Assembly (NCBI GenBank): GCA_951406725.2
Contig: OX597821.1
Coordinates: 79,732,001 to 79,796,000 of the forward strand
DNA: 64,000 nt
Origin: Octopus vulgaris
Taxonomy: Eukaryota
Direction: 5' to 3'
Part shown: positions 5,672 through 29,393 of the stretch, one piece after another
Position numbering within the stretch: the stretch's first letter is position 1
How the letters are laid out: each line of letters opens with the position of its first letter
Translations under genes and position numbers: made by a program
Notes under the pieces: generated by a model
Told to the model about the DNA's origin: nothing
What the model saw: only the letters and a program-made list of their open reading frames with translations
Database searches by the model: none

Positions 5672-6913
5672 CTTGTGATGCGCAGACACGCGCTGAGACT
5701 GCGACATCTCTGGCTCTATGTAGACGACGGTGAACAGGTGTGGTCGCCGTTTGTGAGGCACGCTTTCCCGCAGCTCGTCTCCATGACCGAACTGCAGTCG
5801 TGGATCAAAAAGAGGCCGAGGAAGGGCGAATGGCACCGCGAGTGTCGCGTTGCTCTCAAGCAACTCTGCCGTCCTGGGTCGACCTTGAGTGACTTCAACA
5901 CAACCAAAGCATTCTATAGGGGTTTAGTGGAGGGGAGGTGCGACGACGAGCTCGGGGCGAACCTGGACGTCGACGAGGAGTACCTGACCCGCCTGTTCAG
6001 GACGACTTTCGGGCCAGGGCCCATGGACAACTTCCAGAGATCCCTGGCCTGGCAGTGCTACCGAGAAGCGCTACCCGTTCGGGATAAGCTCTACATACAC
6101 GGCTCGAGAAACACGGGGCCGACCTGCCCGAGATGCGGTCAGAGCAACGAAACCGTTCTGCACGCACTCGTGCAGTGTCCAACAATTTCCGACCTGTGGG
6201 CTTATGTCGAACAACTGCTGTCACGTGTGGGACGAGTCGGTTTAACAGCTGAGTCTATCGTCAATATTGTCACGCCTCCTTCCTTCAAACGGGAAGGAAG
6301 AGCTATTTTCATCATCCTTGTGGCTATGGCGAAAGAATGTATCTGGTGGACGCGTCTGAAAGGATTGGAGACAAACACTTTCCTCTCTGGTCAATCTCTC
6401 ATCAACTTCTTCAAGTACCACTTGAAAAGGAAAGTGAGAGTAGAGAGGCAAGTTTTGTCTAGCGAATGTTTTAAAAAAAGATGGGTGAATGTAGCAAGAA
6501 TGGCACATATGAATGACGAAGCCACCTTGAGCATGATCCTATGAACCCAGAAATTGAAAACAGAGAGTTGCTTATTCGCAAAAAAAAAAAAGAAATATAA
6601 CATGTGACTCCATTGACCGAGGTTACCGTGGTCTTTTCCGTAGGCTTTTCTTTCCACGGGTAAACCTCACCTGTCCTCCCCTTTACACTTCATATTGACA
6701 TTTCTGTGATAACGATCCCTATTGATCAATTTTTTTTTTTTCACTCCCCCTTTTTTTTAACCACCCTTTTTTTGTCCTCTTTCTCTCCTTTTACGATCCC
6801 TTTTGATCGAAACTCCCCCTTCCTTTTTTTTTTTTTTTAAACCTTCAAAAGAAAAGCTCTACCTTGTAATTTGTTCTATCTGTGTGCAGCCCTGTGTGGC
6901 TAATAAAAAAACA
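5672..6913 (+). mobile_element. 5'-truncated Tx1/L1-clade LINE with 16-bp TSD
   Basis: Open ORF2 C-terminus ending at 6544 with CCHC knuckle CPRCGQSNETVLHALVQCP (zf-RVT-like). Pyrimidine-rich 3'UTR and AATAAA at 6902. Direct repeat TATCTTGTGTATAAAT at 5656-5671 and 6914-6929. Confidence 0.88.
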
Positions 6914-7361
6914 TATCTTGTGTATAAATACACACAGATGGGTAGACGCTGCTAAATATCTAGAACGTGAAACCGAAATTTATATATAAATCCTTAAAAT
7001 CCTTAAAAATGTTTCAGCCCGAAGGCTGAGGCCATGCTGGGGCACCACCGTTGCTTTCATGTCCAGTTATACATAAAAACTATTTGACATTAAATTGAAG
7101 AGGTACTCAATGCTTATTAAACTTTTACAAGAAGATGGCTGATAGTGACTTCGAACTTTCGGCTTGCTTTGTATGATATACTCGAGAATTATCTATTTTG
7201 ATATAATATTCTCGAAATAGCTATTGCAGTCAGAACTCAATTTAATTCTGAACTTTTTTATTGAACCTTCTCAGCAGCAACCATCTCGCTTTTAGTTCAA
7301 TTGTAAAATGTTCAGTAAAATACAAGAGTATCTGTTATATACATACATAGAATGTATGTAT

Positions 7362-7486
<125 letters not shown>

Positions 7487-8016
7487 TTTAATTAGAGGTT
7501 GTGTTAGCCTCACGAAAGGCTCGTTTCATCCAAGGAAATACTGGTTCAGTTTTGGGGTATAATAGGTATATATAAAAACTCATAGCTTATATTCATTTAA
7601 AAAGAAGAAGAAAATGGAGATTGGGGAGTTAACTGTTAATTATTAACAGCAAATTGGTCATCTTCAATTGATGAAACAGGTGTACTTACGAGTACATTTC
7701 GAAGCATAATTTTATGTCCCGGATTAAAGGTTATATATACATATCTGCTTTCTATGATAGGAGCGAGAGTTTTTTTAATTCTACTTTACTCCCATAGGCA
7801 TTGTTGTCATTAATTAGTTAAGTTAATGTTGAATTTGTTATTGACATCTTCCAATGAAAAGCATCTGGTTTTTAGATGAAAGATGTGCACTTGAAGTCTT
7901 GTACTGTACTTTACGTTTCGTCTACACATGCACACGCTCAAATACGCATGCATACATACACACACACACACATATATATATATATATGAATATATGTATA
8001 CATGTATATATATACG

Positions 8017-8431: not shown

Positions 8432-9131
8432 TTATGTATATATCTATACAGATATATAAATATACATCACCCGAGAAGGAAGAGAAACAGAGAGAGAGAG
8501 AGAGAGAGAGAATGTGAAGGAATAAAGACAGAAAGAGAATGTATATACATATACACATAAATGTTTATTATGTGTGCTTGTAGGTATGAATGCATGAGTG
8601 CATAAAAAGTGGAGAGATGTGTGTGTAGCTTGGGCTTATGTGTATAGATGTGCGTATGTGTTAGCCCATGGAAAGGAGAACAAGTAATCAGGATTAACCG
8701 GTATATAATTTTGAATAATTAATCTTGTTAAACCGTGTCCTGTTGCTTTCAAAAATAAATTCCTTGTGACCGCAATTGTTTTGGTCAAGGCTAACGATTT
8801 CCACCATCAAAACCACTATCAACACCAACATCACCACCACTACCACCACCACACCCACATTCTTCTTCTTCTTCTACTACTACTACTACTACTACTACTA
8901 ATACTACTACAAGATGAAAGCTTGATTTGGTTCTGACAGTATTTAAAGTCAGAACATAGTGGGACTTCAAAATACTATTGGGTCGGGTCATTCGGAAGTT
9001 TGTGGTTCCGATAATTTACATAATCTACAGTTTCAGCCACTCTACTGTCTTGCGTGAAGACGATAAATAGAGTTTACGTTATTTACTTTATTTACATTCG
9101 ACGGATATTTGTCCTCATCTTGTTTTTTGTT

Positions 9132-9177
9132 AACACAACGTTTCAGCTGATATACCCTACAGCCTTCATCAGGTGTC
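9132..9177 (-). ncRNA. Minimal type I hammerhead motif (Penelope-type)
   Basis: Minus strand GACAC-CTGATGA-A-GGCTG-loop-CAGCT-GAAAC-GTT-GTGTT, with palindromic AACGTT in place of stem III. Confidence 0.72.
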
Positions 9178-9264
9178 TTGGGGAAATTTCGAACCTGGGT
9201 TCTCATTCCTAAGGTATTTTTCGATGTTGTATTATTATTATTATTATTATTATTGTTGTTGTTG

Positions 9265-9332
<68 letters not shown>

Positions 9333-9346
9333 TATTATTATTATTA

Positions 9347-10025
9347 TATGTTTGACTTTTGCTTTATGTTTGTACAAGTTGGCTTCAAGTCTCACCCAGA
9401 GACCTCAATAGATAACAGGTTGGAAGTTCACATTGTTGTTATGCCTAGTGTGCCATATATTTGGGGTTTTTTTTGGTGTTGTACTAGTGAATGTCTAATA
9501 AATAAATTAAACAAAAAAAAAGTTTGTTTTAAACCTTGAGATTACATAGAGAGTATTTTGCGTAGGATATGAGCAGTTCTTTTGAATTTCTGTCACTTTT
9601 GGGTTTCCTGGTATCTGAGTTAGGTAGCAATCAGCCCCTTTCGCTATCATTCCCAGGGCACCTATGACAACAGGTATTGTTTTAGTCTTCAGGTTCCACA
9701 TTTTGCTGATTTCAAGATCTTTATATTTGCTCAGTTTTTGGTAGGTGTTGACAGATACGTTTATATCGATTGGGACAGTCATATCAATGAGGAGGCATGT
9801 TCTTTGTCTGAAGTCTTTCAATATGATGTCTGGCCTGTTTGCATCTATCTTTCTGTCAGTTTGAATGGTGAAGTTCCAGAGGAGTGAGATGTGGTCATTT
9901 TCAAGCACTGGGGGTGGATTGTGTTCCCACCAGTTTTTTTCATGGGGCAAATCCAGGTTTTTGCAAATTACCCAGTGAATATATTGTGCAGCTCTATCAT
10001 GCCTTTTGAGGTACACTGTAGGCGC
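9347..10025 (-). mobile_element. R4/Dong-clade LINE 3' fragment (RLE endonuclease + 3'UTR)
   Basis: ORF 9507-10016 has RHD..YIHW, NRPDIILKD, LLIDMTVP, KLSKYKDL and IPVVIGALG. Both ends abut (TTA)n. Confidence 0.9.
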
Positions 10026-10222
<197 letters not shown>

Positions 10223-10270
10223 TCACTGCCTGGAATCGAACTCGGAATCTTGAGGTTAGTAGCTACGCTA

Positions 10271-10347
10271 TATGGCATAGTGGTTAAGAGCGCAGGCTAC
10301 AAAACTCCAAGATTCCGAGTCCGATTCCAGGCAGTGACCTGAACAAT

Positions 10348-10379
<32 letters not shown>

Positions 10380-10440
10380 ACAATAATAATAATAATAATA
10401 ATAATAATACCACCACCACCAACAATAATAATGATAATAA
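10271..10440 (+). mobile_element. Inverted tRNA-like head of the same element followed by (CAA/TAA)n
   Basis: A box TGGCATAGTGG at 10273-83 and B-box-like GAGTCCGATTCC, ending GACCTGAA. Head-to-head with copy 1 across ATAT. Confidence 0.78.
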
Positions 10441-10442
10441 TG

Positions 10443-10800
10443 ATTTCATTTAATTGCCACAAGGGCGAAGGTGAGAGGGACAATACAAAGACAGACGTAG
10501 AGTGTGGGGGATTAAAAATAATGAAATGATAAAAAAAATGAAAGAAAGAAAGTATACACTGAAAAAGAAGGGACATCTGCATAGCATACAAAGGTTTAAA
10601 AAAGAGGTGGCAGGGTGGATGATAGAGATGTGGCCCTCCTCATACAGGAAAGCCTTCAGGGACAATCACAGGACCCCACTGTTCAAGATTTTCCTTAAAC
10701 CCCCAGCAGCAAGTGCCCTCTGCAATTCCTTCTCGCCGACTCACAGGTTTACACTTAGAGAGGTACCATCTACTCTTACCATTTTCACAACTTTCACCCT
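10443..10800 (-). mobile_element. Tx1-like LINE 3' end inserted in (TAA)n
   Basis: Minus strand RVKVVKMVRVDGTSLSVNL* resembles the C-terminus at 6480-6544. Ends GCCCTTGTGGCAATTAAATGAAA. Confidence 0.55.
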
Positions 10801-10809
10801 AATAATAGT

Positions 10810-10886
<77 letters not shown>

Positions 10887-10890
10887 TAAT

Positions 10891-13870
10891 ATTACCAGAC
10901 TCACAGATGCAGAATTAACCTCTATTAAAAAAGTGGTAGAGAATGACCTAAATGCAAGTCAGGAAAGAAATAACGAAGCTGAGGAGAGGAATGTTGGGCC
11001 ACAAGCATTGACTGAAAGGCAACCATCTGCCGAAACGACTCAAGATCCTGAAGAAGAAGGAAAATATGACCCCAGAAAAAACAGCCCGGAAAATGATGTC
11101 GAAACAGAATTTGAAAATCACATGTTTGTTGAAGAACACAGAAAATCTATCATTGAAATGAAGCAAGAAGTTCTGAATGAGCTTGCAGTTGTAGGCCATA
11201 CAACTATGAATGATAGGGAACCACTCCATAAACTCTCAAATGCACACCAACATAAAACACAAATAAAAATTGGCAACTGCGTTACACAAGAAATCATACA
11301 CAAACTAAAATCCGATCTTAATAAATTAAATGAAATTATTTACTCTGTCGCTAAGGTAATCGAAAGACGCTGTTTAACACCCTAAAAGCCAACAATACCA
11401 AATTCCAAAAAGAAAATCAAACTGGAGGAGTAGAATTGAAACTGAAATTGAATCATTTCGAAGGGAGATATCAATATTAACTGAGCTAATTTCTGAAAAT
11501 GATGTAAGATCAAGAAAAGGCAGGAAGATTGTGAGAAAATGTGGACTCTCAACAAGAGAAGAACTAATGTCAGCGAAAGAAACACTTAAACAAAAAGTTC
11601 AAGCAAAAGCTCAGAGAATATGCAGATTTGAGAAAAGAATCAAATTCTACAAACAAAATAAGATGTTCAAATCCAATGCCAAATCATTTTACAGGGAAAT
11701 AGGGAAAGAAAAAAATAACCATTGAAAATCCACCCCTAATGGAAGAAGTTGAAAACTTTTGGAAGGGAATCTGGAGTGATGAGAAACCATACAATGAAAA
11801 TGCAGAGTGGATCAAACGCACCCAAGACAACTACAAAAATTTACAAGAACAGGTATGGGAAGACATCTCAATCGCCGACCTCAGGAAAGCACTAACAAAG
11901 GCTCATAAGTGGAAATCCCCTGGTATTGATAGAGTACCAAATTTTTGGCTCTCATCACTCTCGTCCGCGCGAAAAATGTTAGTAATACTATTAAATAGTA
12001 TTATGAAATACCCGAAAAAAACACCACATCGGATAGCAAATAGTATTACTTACCTCCTCCCCAAAAATAACAAAACGAAAGACCCAAAAAACTATCGGCC
12101 TATAACATGTTTATCTACTACCTATAAGATCTTGACATCTATTCTAGTAGAGAAAACATATACGTTTATGAAAGAGAATAACCTCTTTCCCACTGAACAA
12201 AAAGGATGCAGACGAGGCTCATACGGATGCAAAGATCAGCTCCTAATTAATCGCATGATCCTTGAGAACTGCCATAACAAGCGCAGAAATCTCAGCTCTT
12301 CGTGGATTGATTATAAAAAAGCCTTTGACAGCATACCACATTCGTGGATTCTGAAATCGCTGGACATTTTCAAAATTTCTCCTGTGATTTCAGATTTTTT
12401 AAAGTATATGTCACAATGGAACACGAAGCTCCAATTATATCATTCTAATGGAGTATTGCGCTCAAACAACATTAGCATAAACTGTGGAATTTTCCAAGGT
12501 GACTCACTTTCACCACTAATATTCTGCATAGCACTAATACCACTCTCAAGTGAACTGAATAGAACAGGATATGGCTACAAAATTGACAAGAAAATAAGCC
12601 ATCTATTTTATATGGATGACTTAAAGCTATATGGCAAAGATGATGAAGAGCTTGAAGGATTATTACATACTGTGAAAGGATTCAGTGATGATATCGGGAT
12701 GGAGTTTGGCCCTGAAAAGTGTGGCCAAAGCCACTTTTAAGAAAGGGAAATTGGTCTTGAGCAGCTAATATGTCAATCGAATTAGATGTCGAAATAGTAA
12801 TAAAGGAGCTTGAGCAGGAACAAACCTATAAATACCTAGGAATAAATGAAGACTCTGGTATCCAGCATGCAAGCATGAAAGAGAAGGTTAGGAAAGAATG
12901 TTATAGAAGAGTTCGAGCAGTCCTGAAGTCTGAGCTGAATGCATATAATAAGGTTTTAGCCATAAATTCCTTAGCAGTACCAGTTGTTCTTTATAGCTTC
13001 AATGTGCTTAACTAGTGAAATAATTAGAATGATATAATTGGAGCTTCGTGTTCCATAGTGACATATTATACTTTAAAAAATCTGAAATACTAGTGAAATA
13101 ATGAAAATTGACAGGAAAATCCGCAAGCTACTGACTTGTAATAAGATGCATCATCCAAAGGCAGACGTAGATCGCCTTTACCTTCCCAGAGTTCAGGGAG
13201 GTCGAGGTTTGATCCAGCTTGAACTTACATACAAAACCACCACAATCGGACTGGCCAAATACCTTGAAGTAACCAACGATTGGATGCTAAAACTTGTTGA
13301 AAAGCATGAAAGACCTAAAACACTTCACTCTGTTCTCAAAGAGAGCAAAAAATTCGCTGCTGATCTCTTAGATACCCACCAGATTGAGCAGGCTGAAGGA
13401 ACTGCGCCAACTGCAGCTGCAAAGAAAATGAAATTAATTGCAAAGACAAAAGCACATGAAAATTTAGCTAGCAGATGGGAAGAGAAACCTCTCCATGGCA
13501 AGTATGTGGCCCGTAGCAAACAAGCTGATGTCGACCAGAAACACACGCACCAATGGTTACGAAGTTCAGGGCTAAAAGCAGAGAGTGAAGGTTTCATATT
13601 AGCTGCTCAAGACCAAAGCTTATTTACCCGGAACTACCAAGCCAATGTGATGAAAAATGGAGCTGACCCAAAATGCCGATTCTGTAACGATGAGATTGAA
13701 ACAATAGACCACCTAATCTCAGGGTGTAGAGTCTTAGCACCTGCAGAATATAAAGCAAGACATGACAGAGTCGGCCAGTATTTACACTGGACAATATGTC
13801 GGCATTATAAAATCAAAACCGCTGACAAATGGTATAAACATCATTCTGAAGCTGTGACTGAGGGGGAAAA
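10891..13870 (+). mobile_element. R4/Dong-clade non-LTR retrotransposon, truncated at both ends, frameshifted RT
   Basis: RT motifs NYRPITCL, QKGC..GCKDQLLIN, WIDYKKAFDSIPH, GIFQGDSLSP and YMDDLKLY; CCHC CRFC..ETIDHLISGC; RHDRV. Flanked by (TAA)n; the RLE domain is missing. Confidence 0.93.
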
Positions 13871-23715: not shown

Positions 23716-24707
23716 TAGATATGTTAATAAATATAGAGTTACTGTTGTCATCCAACTGGAAACGTAACTTGAATGCTTGCAACGGAGTGAACTCTAAAGA
23801 ACAAGAAGTTGTGAAGCTGGTCGATGGATCTATCGTGCGCGCCAGCACAATCATCCGAGGAGAAATTTCAGAAGATATTTAGTGAAGCATCATCAGCAAA
23901 TCTCAGCAAATCGTCGTCATCGCCATTGCCGCTTTCGTCGTCGTCGCCACCATCACGAGGATCATCATCACTCCGCCCCGCCGCCGCCATTGTCGTCATC
24001 GTAGTTTTTCTTGTTGTCGTCTTCACCATGATAAACGTCATCCCATCATCGTCGTCGTCGTCGTCGTTATCATCAGCATCATCAGCATCATCAACATCGT
24101 CTCTCTTATTAAAAAAGACTGAGAATCGTTACTCCTCCCGTATCTAACACCTGAATGACCATTTCATTTTTACCTTTTCAACTTTCTTATGATCCTCTTC
24201 TTCCTCGTCCTTATTATCGACTGCTTTTGTGATGCTGTCATCCGGGAGAAGATAAGTATGGACTGGAGAGAAAGGTAGGAAGAAAGAAACGTAGAGAAAT
24301 ACAAAGGAGGGTAAGAGAGATAGAAAAAGAGAGAGCGACGGGGAAAGGAAGAGAGAGAGACAGATTAGATACAAAAGAGAGAGAAAGGAGAGGGAGAAAG
24401 AGAGGAGAGGGAGAAAAAAGAGAGAAGCGAGAGAGAAAGAGAGAGAAAGGAGAAAGATTGAGAGAGAGAGAGAGGGAACAGAAAAAGAATGGAAAGGAAA
24501 CCGGGGACTGCTATTTTACAGTTGGTTGACCAGAAATAACGACGGTTTCTTATCAAAGAACTGGCTGTCATTCCCATTTCTACTTGTCACACTACGCAGT
24601 AATGAGAATGTCCTCTACAGTACAGTTCTATATTTAAGAGATGTGGAATTATGTACATTATTTACATTATTTACATTCGACGGATATTTGTCCTCGTCTT
24701 GTTTGTT

Positions 24708-24753
24708 AACACAACATTTCAGCTGATATACCCTCCAGCCTTCATCAGGTGTC
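24708..24753 (-). ncRNA. Minimal type I hammerhead motif (one CpG-type mutation)
   Basis: GACAC-CTGATGA-A-GGCTG-GAGGGTATAT-CAGCT-GAAAT-GTT-GTGTT. Confidence 0.65.
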
Positions 24754-24800
24754 TTGAGGAAATTTCGAACCTGGGTTCTCATTCCTGAAGTACTTTTCGA

Positions 24801-24885
<85 letters not shown>

Positions 24886-24888
<3 letters not shown>

Positions 24889-27800
24889 TAGTTTTATTTT
24901 TATAGTGTGCTTTCACTTCACTACCGAGCGCAGCTCTGTGTGCCTTGGGTATGTGCTGTGATTTGTTGTGATGCTCTGATGGTTATTGTATGGAAAGTGT
25001 TCTGTGTAGGATGTGTGCAGTGCCTAGTGGTGCAATTTTCTGTATGTTATATGTGTTTGTAAGTCCTGGTGTTTTTGTTATGTATTTGTCTGAATATTTT
25101 TTTATCATGCCTAATGCACCTACTATGATAGGAATTGTTTCTGTTTTTAGATTCCACATTCTGGTTACCTCTATTTCCAGGTCTTTGTATTTTGAAAGTT
25201 TCTCCATTTCTTTTAGAGACACGTTGTCATCTGCTGGTATTGATACATCAATTAGAAAGCATTTTTTTTCTTCATGATCTCTGACAACTATATCTGGTCT
25301 GTTGGCCTTAATTTCTCTATCTGTGTGTATCGGCATATCCTAGAGTATGGTTGCTTTCTCGTTTTCTGTGACCTTTTCTGGTGTGTGCCTATACCATCTT
25401 TTTTCTGTTGTTATTCCATAATGTTGGCATAGCTTCCAGTGTATGTAGGTTCCAACTCTGTCATGTCTGTGAATATATTCCTTCTTAGCCAGGACTGGGC
25501 AGCCAGAGATAATATGATTTATTGTTTCTTGTCCATCTCCAAATATTCTGCAGTTACTTGTAATATTTCTTTTCATTACATGTTTTTGGTAATTTCTGGT
25601 GGGGAGGCTTTGGTCTTGTGCTGCAATTAAAAAATCCCTCTGTTTCTGCTTTGAGTCCTGAGCTTCTCAACCATTGCTGGGATTTTTCTTTGTCTATTTC
25701 TTTTGCGTTTAGTTCAGTCAAGTATTTACCATGAAAGGGCTTTTCTTGCCATCGTTTTATCTTGTTTCCTTGCTGTTCTATTTTTAGTTTGGATTTCATT
25801 TGTTTTATAGCTTTTGTTGTTTCTTCATCTTCTTCATATTTATTAGGTGGTATGATTTCTTGTTTGTATTTGTCAGCTTCCTTAAATACTGAGAACAGTT
25901 TTTTTTGTTTTGCTCGTGTTTTGCTGCTATTTGTATCAGTTTCCCTTCCTTCTGAAGTAGATATTTTTGCAGTCCTATGGTGGTTATTTTATAGTAGTTT
26001 TCCAGCTGTATAAGGTCTCTACCACCTTCTATACGTTGTATATATAGTCTTTCTATGTCAGATTTTGGGTGATGCATCCTAGATCCTGTCATTATTTTTC
26101 TTGTTTTCCTATCTATTTTGGTCAGTTCATTTAGTGTCCAGTTAAGGATATTGTAGCTGTAACTTATAACTGGGACATCTAAAGTGTTAATACCTATTAT
26201 CTTGTTTTTAGCATTGAGCTCTGTTTTTAGTATTGATCTAACTCGTCTATAATATTCTTTTAATTTTCTCTTTCATTTGTGTGTGTTATGTCTTATCTAG
26301 TTCATGGATTCCTAAGTATTTGTAAGTTTGGCTTTGGTCTAATTCTTTTATTTCATTGGTTTTATCTAGTGTGATGTTGCTACTCTTAACTAGTTTTCCT
26401 CTTTTCGGGGTTACTTTGGCGCATTTTTCTAATCCAAATTTCATATCTATTTCTTTGGTAAATCCATGAACTATCTTTAATAGTGTTTCCAGCTGTTTGT
26501 CATTTGCAGCGTATAATTTTAGGTCATCCATATATAAAAGGTGGCTGATCGTTTTGCCGTAACATTTATATCGCATCCAGTTCTATTTAGCATATCAGAT
26601 AGAGGTGACAGTGCCAAACAGAAAAGGAGTGGGGAGAGTGTGTCTCCCTGGAATATTCCTCTTCTAACGGGGATGGCTTTGGTTTTCATGAGTCCCTCTT
26701 TCGTTTGGAGCTGTAGCACTGTTTGTCATTTATTCATATAGTGCCCTATGAGTTTTATAATTGTTGGTGCTACTTTGTTAATGACTAGTGTTTCGAGGAT
26801 CTATGTGTGGGGGATGCTATCAAACGCCTTTTCGTAATCAATCCCGGCCATACTGAGGCCCTTCTTCTTTCTGTGGCTGTCTTCAGTTATGGCTTTATTA
26901 ATCATTAGTTGATCTTTACAGCCATATGAGACTGTGCGGCATCCTTTCTGCTCTTCTAGAAACAGGTTGTTTTCGTCCAGGTGTTTGTTCAACCTTTGCG
27001 ATATCACTGCAGTAAATTCCTTGTACATTGTAGGGAGACAGGTTATTGGTCTGTAGTTTTCTGGTTTTGCTGTCTCATTTGATTTGGGAATTAAGATGGT
27101 TTTCCCCTTCGTGAGCCATTCAGGCATTGTCTCTGGCTCTGCTAATATGTTGTTAAAGTTTTCAGCCAGCTTTTTGTGCATTCCTGTTAGATATTTCAAC
27201 CAGAAGTTAGGGATCTTATCATGCCCAGGTGCCTTCCAGTTGCTTATACTTTGCAGTGCCTGGGTGACCTCTTCAGTTGTTATGGGGGTCCAAAGTTGCT
27301 CAGATGCTGAGTTTGTTGTTTTAATACTCCTTTTTTTGGTTGTTCGTTCGCCGACCATATTTCTCTCCATGATTCTTCCACTTCTTCTGCCGATGGTACT
27401 GCAGTGATTTCTATTTTACTTTTGCCAAGTTCTTGGTATAACTTTTTGGGGTTGGAGTTGAACTGTTTGTTTTGTTCAAAGAAGCGCTGGCGTTTCTCGT
27501 ACCGGCGGATCCTTTGTGCTTTGGCAAGGATATCTTGCTTCAGCTTTTCTTTTATTTCAGGCAAATCTTTCTCTGTGATGTTATATTTGCGGAGTATTTT
27601 TGTTTTCTTTTTGTTGCTCAGTAGCGTTGATTGTCTACTGATTTCATTAAGAATCGACAGATCTTTTCTCATTTTTTGTATTTTCTTTTGGGTGTTATTT
27701 ATCCACAGGGTTTGTTTGGGTGGTGGTACTCCTGTTTGAATGGGTCTGAGTGAGTATCCAGCTTCTTTTGTGGCTGCAGTGGCTGCTGCGTATACTAAGT

Positions 27801-28971
27801 CATTTATCTCAGTGATATCGCTTTTTGTTTCAGTGGCTATTAGTTCCGTGACGGCTAGGTTTATGCTGTTTATAATTGGTGTTGTTGTTTCGTCTATTTT
27901 GATTTTTGGGAGGTATGGTCGGTGGTCCATTTTGAGCTCTGTGTTTTTCAGTTCTTTGATTATTTTACTTTTTATATTATCATAATCATTAGGCTCCCCT
28001 TCGTTGTTTCCAGGTTTTAGATTTATGTCGCTTTCTTTCTTATTTATATGTTTGTTTGTCGTGTTTTGGCTTGCTGTTTGTCGTGTATTATTATGCATCC
28101 TTACGGTCTGGGTTTGTGGTTTTTTGTTTACATCGTGTTTGTTGGGAATGTTACGTTTGTCTTCGTGTTTTACTGTTTCAGTGTTTATATTATTGGGCAT
28201 TGTTGTGTGGCTTCTATCTACATTTTCCTGTTGTATTTTTTCTTTTAGATGTTCTCTTTCTATTTCTGATATATTTTTTGCGTTGATAATGTATCTTCGT
28301 TCGTTAGCTAGTTTATTAGGGTTCATTGCTGTATCCAAGTCTATATTTATGTTATTTTCCTTCCATATTTTATATGTATGTGTTGTTGTGTTTTAATTTT
28401 TTGGGTAGAGCACTGCTGTGAAGTATGCGTGTAGGATAGTAATGTATTCCTCACGGGTCCATTTATGTCTTTTGGGTTTTATTTGCGGGACATGAGGAAC
28501 AACGTCCGGCCCATTATTTTGACGGTCGTCATTTTCATAGGGTACCGGTCCGTTCATTTCTGTTGTCACATTGTTTTGCACGTGTAGTTTTTCGTACATT
28601 TTGTGTTGTAAGTTTAAAGTACGTACTTCCCGATTGTTATTCTTGGGTTGAATAATATCGGTGGTATTTAATTTCTTCGTAGTTTTTTGTACATGGCGTT
28701 TGGGGTCGGGGATGATCTGGTGTTGATGGATCGTAATGGTCTACGCATGTTTACATGTGTTGTGTTAGAGGTGGAGATGATATCGAGTTAAAATACGTCA
28801 TTTCGTTTCGAAAATAGTAATAAATTTCAATGAGTATTACTTACTCGGATATAGTCCAATCCTTTGTTAGTAAATTTTTGGCTCCATACGATGTCTTTAT
28901 TTTCGATGTTTGTGGATACATTTCGGAGCTCTGTTTTATCATTCTTACATCTTAAACGTCCCCGGCGTCTC
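24886..28971 (-). mobile_element. Apparently full-length R4/Dong-clade retrotransposon (~4.1 kb), pseudogenised
   Basis: Colinear N-terminal RHKWTREEY (Myb-like), RT (NYRPITCL, IDYEKAFDSIPH, GIFQGDTLSP, YMDDLKLY), knuckle region ETINHIISGC..RHDRV and RLE NRPDIVVRD..IDVSIP..KLSKYKDL. Several frameshifts; (TTA)n on both sides. Confidence 0.95.
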
Positions 28972-29037
<66 letters not shown>

Positions 29038-29393
29038 TCACTGCTTGGAATCGAACTCGGAATCTTGGAATTAGTAGCCCGCGCTCTTAATCACTACGCT
29101 ATATGGAAGCTGGAGGGTGTATCAGCCGAAACGTTGTATTAACAACAAACAAGATGAGGACAAATATCCGTCAAATATAAATAATGTAAATAATGTAAAT
29201 AATGTCCTCTACAGTCTCCAGGATTGTTCCTTTGGTATTTCCAAATGGACGTCAGGATTTCACTTGATTTCGTGTACACACATCGCTGCGCATCTATGTG
29301 GTTTCAGGTTCGGTCCTGCTGCGTGGTATAAGGCGGGTAAGTGCTATATGAATGAATTCGATAGATAGTAACTGTGTGAAAGCCCCTCATATA

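Follow-up and report, generated by a model that had tools for sequence, protein, structure and literature searches.

A tRNA-headed hammerhead repeat of Octopus vulgaris as the terminal repeat of a Penelope retrotransposon, with a probable internal promoter

Is a repeat that begins like a tRNA-derived short interspersed nuclear element (SINE) and ends in a hammerhead ribozyme a retroelement in its own right, or part of a larger one? The question is raised by a locus at 24607-29215 of a 64,000-nucleotide stretch of the Octopus vulgaris genome (contig OX597821.1, positions 79,732,001 to 79,796,000; hereafter the window), where a tRNA-like head, a (TAA)n spacer with a nested long interspersed nuclear element (LINE), a minimal hammerhead, a short inverted arm and a 15-bp target-site duplication (TSD) are all present. 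A first-pass annotation had seen here an independent, non-autonomous SINE-retrozyme hybrid, moved by the reverse transcriptase (RT) and GIY-YIG endonuclease of a Penelope-like element (PLE). The unit is almost certainly something else, namely the pseudo-long terminal repeat (pLTR) of an autonomous retrotransposon of the Penelope/Poseidon clade present in the same genome, and not a separate SINE. We further consider it probable that this pLTR is inserted head-to-head and that its tRNA-like head is an internal promoter, most likely one that RNA polymerase III (Pol III) reads.

The autonomous parent and its repeats

The parent element was traced from weak tblastn matches to PLEs lying beside heads at two loci (L179 and L183). 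Its order is head, (TAA)n, tail together with the start of the open reading frame (ORF), RT, GIY-YIG, a 26-nt 3' untranslated region (UTR), and then head, (TAA)n and tail once more. The head stands directly 3' of the ORF in 28 of 30 loci seeded with the ORF (19 of 21 when ten near-duplicates on contig C31 are collapsed) and, in a set seeded with the protein, at 20 of 23 ORF ends; the RT/GIY-YIG stop codon lies about 26 nt ahead of it. On its other side the ORF is entered by the tail, which continues into it in frame and unbroken and forms its first 55 codons. The family majority is a single open frame of 838 codons; its ATG, at tail position 21, precedes the hammerhead. A 53%-identical homologue retains the N-terminal motif that the hammerhead encodes. 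In partial tandems the pLTR lies on both sides of the ORF, with a tail before it and head plus tail after it in five loci (L372, L380, L384, L393 and L398); head plus tail precede the ORF in three others (L249, L251 and L253). A search for an autonomous PLE whose pLTR matches the tail, which the first-pass annotation had proposed, thus ended in an element of Penelope/Poseidon type within the same genome.

The protein is consistent with this placement. The ORF has an RVT_1 match and a GIY-YIG-type motif with CxC that aligns to homologues, while Pfam PF01541 itself gave no score on the ORF fragment searched. The zinc-finger-like linker between RT and endonuclease, a feature of Neptune and Nematis and present in the Neptune-type elements of loci L131 and L139, is absent from the Penelope protein, which groups with Poseidon-type and apart from Neptune-type PLEs in a quick tree supported by SH-aLRT values only. 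Neptune-type PLEs were themselves considered as partners of the repeat and rejected, as the tail is not their pLTR (30 loci and 20 ten-kb extensions, reached through a genome search with Pfam GIY-YIG). Two same-strand pairs of hammerheads, 3 and 5 kb apart (L181 and L182), were likewise tried as pLTR-ORF-pLTR arrangements and found to be independent insertions.

Head and tail had been proposed to form one unit, and they do: a tail lies downstream in 26 of 30 head-seeded loci and for 125 of the 138 heads over all loci. The family is large. A 44-nt hammerhead sequence has 925 exact matches in the genome (its reversed control has 0) and the hammerhead core is present in the family majority, so that the supposed conservation of the core holds; in its strict form the core is intact in 86 of 227 copies. 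Eight 50-kb blocks taken at fixed positions contain five loci, each a head with a tail, from which a genome total of about 35,000 loci is extrapolated (Poisson range roughly 11,000-80,000). Copies differ from the family majority by about 4-6%. When 87 solo heads are compared with 51 heads linked to an ORF, the majority base is the same throughout, and the tails are likewise undistinguished; there is therefore no separate SINE lineage.

What does the repeat share, then, with each of the classes between which it seems to stand? With PLEs it shares a single RT plus GIY-YIG ORF, flanking pLTRs, a minimal hammerhead and inverted 5'-truncated copies. Like tRNA-derived SINEs it opens at its 5' end with a tRNA-related head that carries A and B boxes, but this head belongs to an autonomous element with no distinct non-autonomous lineage, and the 3' ends, which are not LINE-like, fall at two fixed internal sites with no repeat tail. 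Its units are mostly single or inverted, not the head-to-tail tandems of non-LTR retrozymes. The supposed independent hybrid accordingly dissolves: head and tail both belong to the autonomous Penelope, and the solo units carry no diagnostic variants.

The tRNA likeness of the head rests on box spacing and on alignment to the genome's own tRNAs, and the hammerhead was identified by motif and folding; ARAGORN and Rfam, run on single copies, called neither. Exact A and B boxes, spaced 45 nt apart, stand in the head beside decayed tRNA stems; in alignments to 30 genomic tRNA loci, a set comprising only Arg, Ala, Thr, Cys, Lys and Glu, the head is nearest to tRNA-Arg (z 7.0-7.9). At least three other tRNA-headed repeat families, with boxes 44 nt apart, occur in the window and in blocks B3-B7; they are possible donors of the head, and candidates for PLE ends themselves.

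Two kinds of derived copies were also met with. On contig C31 one truncated copy is repeated at least 10 times over 2-11 Mb with the same flanks, a segmental amplification (L207, L208, L211, L214, L215, L221-L223, L228 and L229). Five loci (L403, L424, L411, L404 and L426) are short tail-ORF(1-232/252)-head-tail derivatives with two hammerheads about 500 bp apart; L403 and L424 have an identical junction. These derivatives could be retrozyme-like tandems or the product of a hot spot of template jumping.

The promoter question

Where does the RNA of this element begin? Among 89 head-bearing arms, taken from sets chosen without regard to the 5' end, 43 begin at -10 to +7 of the tRNA-like G1, 32 are truncated inside the head and 7 reach the ORF; the remaining 7 seem to start at -17 to -11, only through the palindrome at the junction, and there are no starts between -94 and -17. 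Copies that contain the start of the ORF and a near-complete head behave in the same way, six of seven beginning at the head and one extending upstream. Given this clustering, the head sits at the usual place of the internal promoter in PLEs, which keep such a promoter in the corresponding position (PMC2377424, PMC8557442), and it appears to be the 5' end of the RNA. On the distribution of these ends, the head is very probably the transcript start.

That Pol III makes a full-length RNA is a more tentative proposition, which we hold to be at best an even matter. TFIIIC would bind the A and B boxes, with transcription starting about 6-7 nt upstream of the tRNA-like region, and the polymerase could pass through the ORF into the next pLTR, there being no TTTT in 2.65 kb. 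The sense strand of the 2,648-nt unit has indeed no run of four or more T, where 2.9 are expected by synonymous shuffling (P 0.026) and 4.4 by base shuffling (P 0.006). Such runs number 7-9 per 2.3 kb in Neptune ORFs of this genome (the eight fragments tested span 1-9), and 42 distant Poseidon-type loci total 241 of them where 148 are expected. No tRNA-like A/B boxes were found by pattern in these 42 loci (0.9-3.2 kb of ORF each, of 79 fetched), and no tRNA heads by Rfam in 12 distant relatives; as far as the 42 loci go, the head would be lineage-specific.

A number of observations weigh against this reading. A first-order Markov model expects 2.3 T4 runs (P about 0.1), under which their absence means little; GGGG is likewise absent from the unit, and five of the distant loci, which lack a tRNA head, show 0-1 T4 runs in 1.1-1.6 kb. 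RNA reads (three runs, from a related organism) track copy number, come equally from both strands and show no pile of starts or ends. In tandem copies a TATA-like TTTATAAG precedes the 5' boundary by about 28 nt, and the 5' pile-up could in part reflect an RT stop, or a join, at the palindrome. The translation of an uncapped Pol III RNA is left unexplained, and Kojima 2024 argues that autonomous elements must use Pol II (PMC10886601). Finally, no intact copy was found among the family copies examined.

The alternative that survives best keeps the same Penelope pLTR and has it transcribed by Pol II, either from a TATA box or initiator just upstream of the head or by host read-through, the captured SINE head riding along and the pile-up being a Pol II start or a hairpin stop or join. 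We regard it as unlikely, though it deserves to be taken seriously. The TATA-like motif just mentioned speaks for it, as do a 12-nt quasi-palindrome at the boundary and the likening of the internal promoter of D. virilis Penelope to TATA-less LINE promoters (PMC2377424), and translation would be easier to account for. Other PLEs, here and elsewhere, have pLTRs with motifs that we take to be CCAAT-, CRE- and TATA-like. It leaves aside, however, that the boxes are perfect and at tRNA spacing although the tRNA stems have decayed, that copies starting at the head, including the six of seven with an ORF start, lack the TATA-like box, and that the 2.65 kb are free of TTTT.

Less probable again is a mixed case, in which the unit was born as a Penelope pLTR, most copies go back to young solo repeats whose short Pol III RNAs were mobilised in trans, and the protein comes from Pol II or read-through RNA, making the family a Penelope-dependent SINE. 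As many as 82 of the 89 head-bearing arms are without ORF sequence, and solos retain the A and B boxes and both RT start sites, which would suffice for mobilisation in trans. The two arms of inverted pairs, moreover, share slightly more non-CpG changes than chance would give (14, out of 224 and 246, against 6.5; P 0.004). Yet no base separates solo from ORF-linked heads or tails, the mixed case gives no account of the T4-free ORF, and the arms have just 14 changes in common out of about 235 in each, so that source copies were close to the master and decayed solos rarely sources. Young solos are inseparable from the master by sequence, and mobilisation in trans can coexist with the Pol III-read Penelope that we favour.

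If the favoured reading is taken to its full extent, an autonomous retrotransposon would have swapped its Pol II promoter for a captured tRNA or SINE head: Pol III would make an RNA of 2.7-2.9 kb, the ORF would have been purged of TTTT, translation of the uncapped RNA would start at an ATG lying just upstream of the hammerhead, and SINE-like repeats would arise from this RNA too, through internal initiation of reverse transcription near its 5' end. This chain as a whole seems to us possible and somewhat doubtful.

Reads at two loci (L209 and L249) span opposite-strand joints, indicating that inverted pairs are transcribed as hairpins within host RNAs; with tens of thousands of loci in the family, such pairs are candidate double-stranded substrates for A-to-I editing.

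Insertion, the ribozyme and the loci of the window

The inverted pairs themselves follow a rule. Among 73 pairs (one locus being counted twice), 61 join a long and a short arm, none two long arms and one two short arms, while 11 have a truncated arm. Long arms end near tail position 183 and short arms at 130-165, mostly 139-158, the short end falling in the loop of a predicted hairpin. A TSD of at least 8 bp brackets 40 of the 73 pairs, three of them in microsatellites, as against 11 of 576 mismatched pairs of flanks. This rule suggests two RT start sites, one per target strand, and with the TSDs it bears out the proposal that the Penelope RT/GIY-YIG protein inserts the repeat. Two internal RT start sites have been demonstrated in vitro for the anole Poseidon (PMC11167929), and a 30-40 bp tail on one arm is a hallmark of PLEs (PMC8557442).

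The protein of the element would cut the target strands about 9-15 bp apart, and reverse transcription would start inside the RNA, for one strand at tail ~148 and for the other at tail ~183, some 35 nt away. These sites would lie some 300 nt from the 5' end of the RNA, also in short RNAs from solo repeats, and most events would copy only head, spacer and tail, stopping at the RNA 5' end and leaving tens of thousands of SINE-looking solos. The two cDNAs would join at their 3' ends, aided by the quasi-palindrome at the RNA 5' end, to give an inverted pair inside a TSD. The hammerhead would be the ordinary minimal ribozyme of a PLE, lying over the ORF start, and its cleavage would not define the ends of inserted copies.

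The first-pass annotation had suggested ends processed by the ribozyme, and for this we find no support. There is no peak of 5' starts at the cut (tail 90/91), with 5, 7 and 8 in the bins 81-90, 91-100 and 101-110, and the 3' ends of the 73 pairs lie at ~148 and ~183. The anole Poseidon, too, has a hammerhead lying over its ORF start and begins reverse transcription within the ORF; the ribozyme there is dispensable for insertion in vitro, and no reads end at the cut (PMC11167929). A chimera of SINE and retrozyme that stands on its own, with hammerhead cleavage of its RNA as a step of the cycle, is for these reasons scarcely credible, even with a core kept in the family majority and two hammerhead copies able to pair through an AACGUU palindrome, as head and tail are both parts of the autonomous element and cleavage would leave the RT start sites on a different piece of RNA from the promoter and the ATG.

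The locus that raised the question fits this anatomy. Its 15-bp direct repeat was reported correctly, lying at 24607-24621 and 29201-29215 of the plus strand and nowhere else in the window. The long arm has a minus-strand tail of 182 bp (24621-24802; tail positions 1-185), which is the 3' part of the pLTR and the 5' end of the Penelope ORF and which ends at the distal RT start site (~183); its translation is open in the Penelope frame to the end of the arm. The predicted start ATG of the 838-codon ORF is at 24780-24782 (minus strand), and the N-terminal motif is also present in homologue P0003. The hammerhead (24708-24753, minus strand) is of the minimal type I, with stem I GACAC/GTGTT, CTGATGA, an extra A, stem II and GAAA, an architecture described for PLEs (PMC4209133). 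It carries the changes C11.1>T and C15.2>T, and the cut is predicted after 24713. On the same strand follow the 3' part of the spacer, (TAA/CAA)n, at 24803-24886, the nested LINE at 24887-28973, the 5' (TAA)n part at 28974-29033 and the head at 29029-29105, which begins at about +4 of the tRNA-like region and has its A box, with one G lost, at 29091-29101 and its B box at 29047-29058. The short inverted arm (29103-29205, plus strand; tail position 58 to about 150) runs as far as the proximal RT start site and there shows microhomology to the TSD. The copy is a damaged one, and the earlier description stands for the head, B box, spacer, tail and inverted arm and fails for GAAAC-GTT, which reads GAAAT-GTT here; a G of the A box is missing, and the inverted arm lacks CTGATGA. 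The hammerhead pattern has two matches in the window and none in 100 shuffles.

The other match belongs to a second locus, where the short-arm tail (9075-9226, minus strand; tail 1-152) has an intact core at 9137-9172 and is the only one of the two copies to keep GAAACGTT. Its head (10214-10272, minus strand) has an internal deletion, and TAA runs together with a LINE 3' fragment lie between it and its tail; a second, inverted head (10269-10346, plus strand) has an intact A box at 10273-10283 and a B box at 10317-10328. The two are joined head-to-head at ATAT, as had been noted, although this junction is not a fixed one, those of the family falling at many places. No tail of the plus arm was found within the window, an R4/Dong-like LINE coming next.

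The LINE within the first locus, of 4,087 bp and flanked on both sides by TAA runs, is frameshifted, with RT, CCHC and restriction-like endonuclease motifs, and we take it to be of the R4/Dong type. It was considered as a source of head or tail and rejected, being an unrelated passenger inside the TAA run and absent from most copies. R4/Dong-type LINEs frequently land in the (TAA)n spacer, as does a repeat of about 600 bp, and often split head from tail (for instance 24887-28973, 9340-10030 and 10400-13870 in the window; loci L164, L171, L189, L197 and L219), and such LINEs would have been drawn to the TAA run later.

Known relatives and the meaning of the element

The closest described system is the Poseidon of Anolis carolinensis, which likewise has a single RT plus GIY-YIG ORF with a hammerhead over its start, two internal RT starts that leave one arm with a tail of 30-40 bp, copies that are inverted and 5'-truncated, partial tandems and variable TSDs (PMC11167929, PMC8557442). 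An 836-aa Anolis protein (P0016), presumably that of Poseidon, is 35% identical over 99% of the query. Unlike Anolis Poseidon as there described, the octopus pLTR consists almost only of the A/B-box head and (TAA)n, with a 26-nt 3' UTR, 5' ends at the head and no TTTT. The minimal type I hammerheads of metazoan PLEs agree in their short helix I, long helix II, extra base between A9 and G10.1, palindromic 15.2-16.2 without helix III, and mostly solo occurrence in truncated PLEs; the octopus ribozyme differs from those described in its GUU cleavage triplet and in the tRNA-like head in front (PMC4209133).

The pairing of head and ribozyme is already known from Sm-alpha and Sj-alpha of Schistosoma, short and very abundant repeats with a tRNA-Gln-derived head of Pol III type and a hammerhead (PMC2770079, PMC6765202, PMC8293314). 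These are non-autonomous SINE-like tandems cut to unit length by a canonical hammerhead, for which the published descriptions at hand name no head-bearing autonomous parent, whereas the octopus units are dispersed inverted pairs whose parent carries the head. The TRIMp3 elements Cassandra, Helenus and Ajax also have a small-RNA-derived Pol III promoter in their terminal repeat, with SINE insertion proposed; they are non-autonomous LTR elements of 311-1263 bp (PMC10886601), while the octopus carrier is an autonomous PLE of about 2.7 kb. Non-LTR retrozymes resemble the repeat as non-coding hammerhead repeats from PLE pLTRs, and differ in being head-to-tail tandems with a hammerhead per unit and, as far as described, without a tRNA head (bioRxiv 10.64898/2026.07.22.740005). 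No autonomous PLE with a tRNA-derived pLTR was found in searches of full-text literature; Repbase, Dfam, subscription journals and supplements lay outside this search and may list the family.

Other repeats with hammerhead-like motifs came to light in the same genome. A young Neptune-type PLE (L131, L132 and L147) has a 781-codon open frame and many intact copies, and is inserted in (TA)n; its pLTR, at the 3' ends of these loci, has repeats that we take to be CCAAT- and CRE-like and a hammerhead-like motif with covariation in the U3-A8 core. At 6876-7775 of locus L135 a 495-bp tandem repeat, with units 99% identical and a CTGAAGA...GAAA hammerhead-like core in each, is a candidate non-LTR retrozyme unrelated to the Penelope family. 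Another abundant repeat (position 3942 of L107, and other loci) has a hammerhead-like CTGACGA-A-GAGC-TCC-GCTC-GAAACGTT and presumably represents a further family of PLE type.

The usual rule is that autonomous retrotransposons are transcribed by Pol II and only short parasites by Pol III, and Pol III promoters in terminal repeats are known, from the source at hand, only in non-autonomous TRIMs (PMC10886601). If the favoured reading is true, a Penelope that couples a promoter of tRNA type to an ORF free of terminators would break the Pol II rule and prompt one to ask how RNA without a cap comes to be translated, which might supply the missing role of the PLE hammerhead. It would unite LINE and SINE in one element and offer a route to repeats like Sm-alpha. 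Whatever the polymerase, the arms of the inverted pairs give unusually clean genomic support for a Penelope mechanism with two start sites. The family is also a warning for repeat libraries, where some abundant 'SINEs' are solo pLTRs, and through it short inverted repeats enter host transcripts by the thousands.

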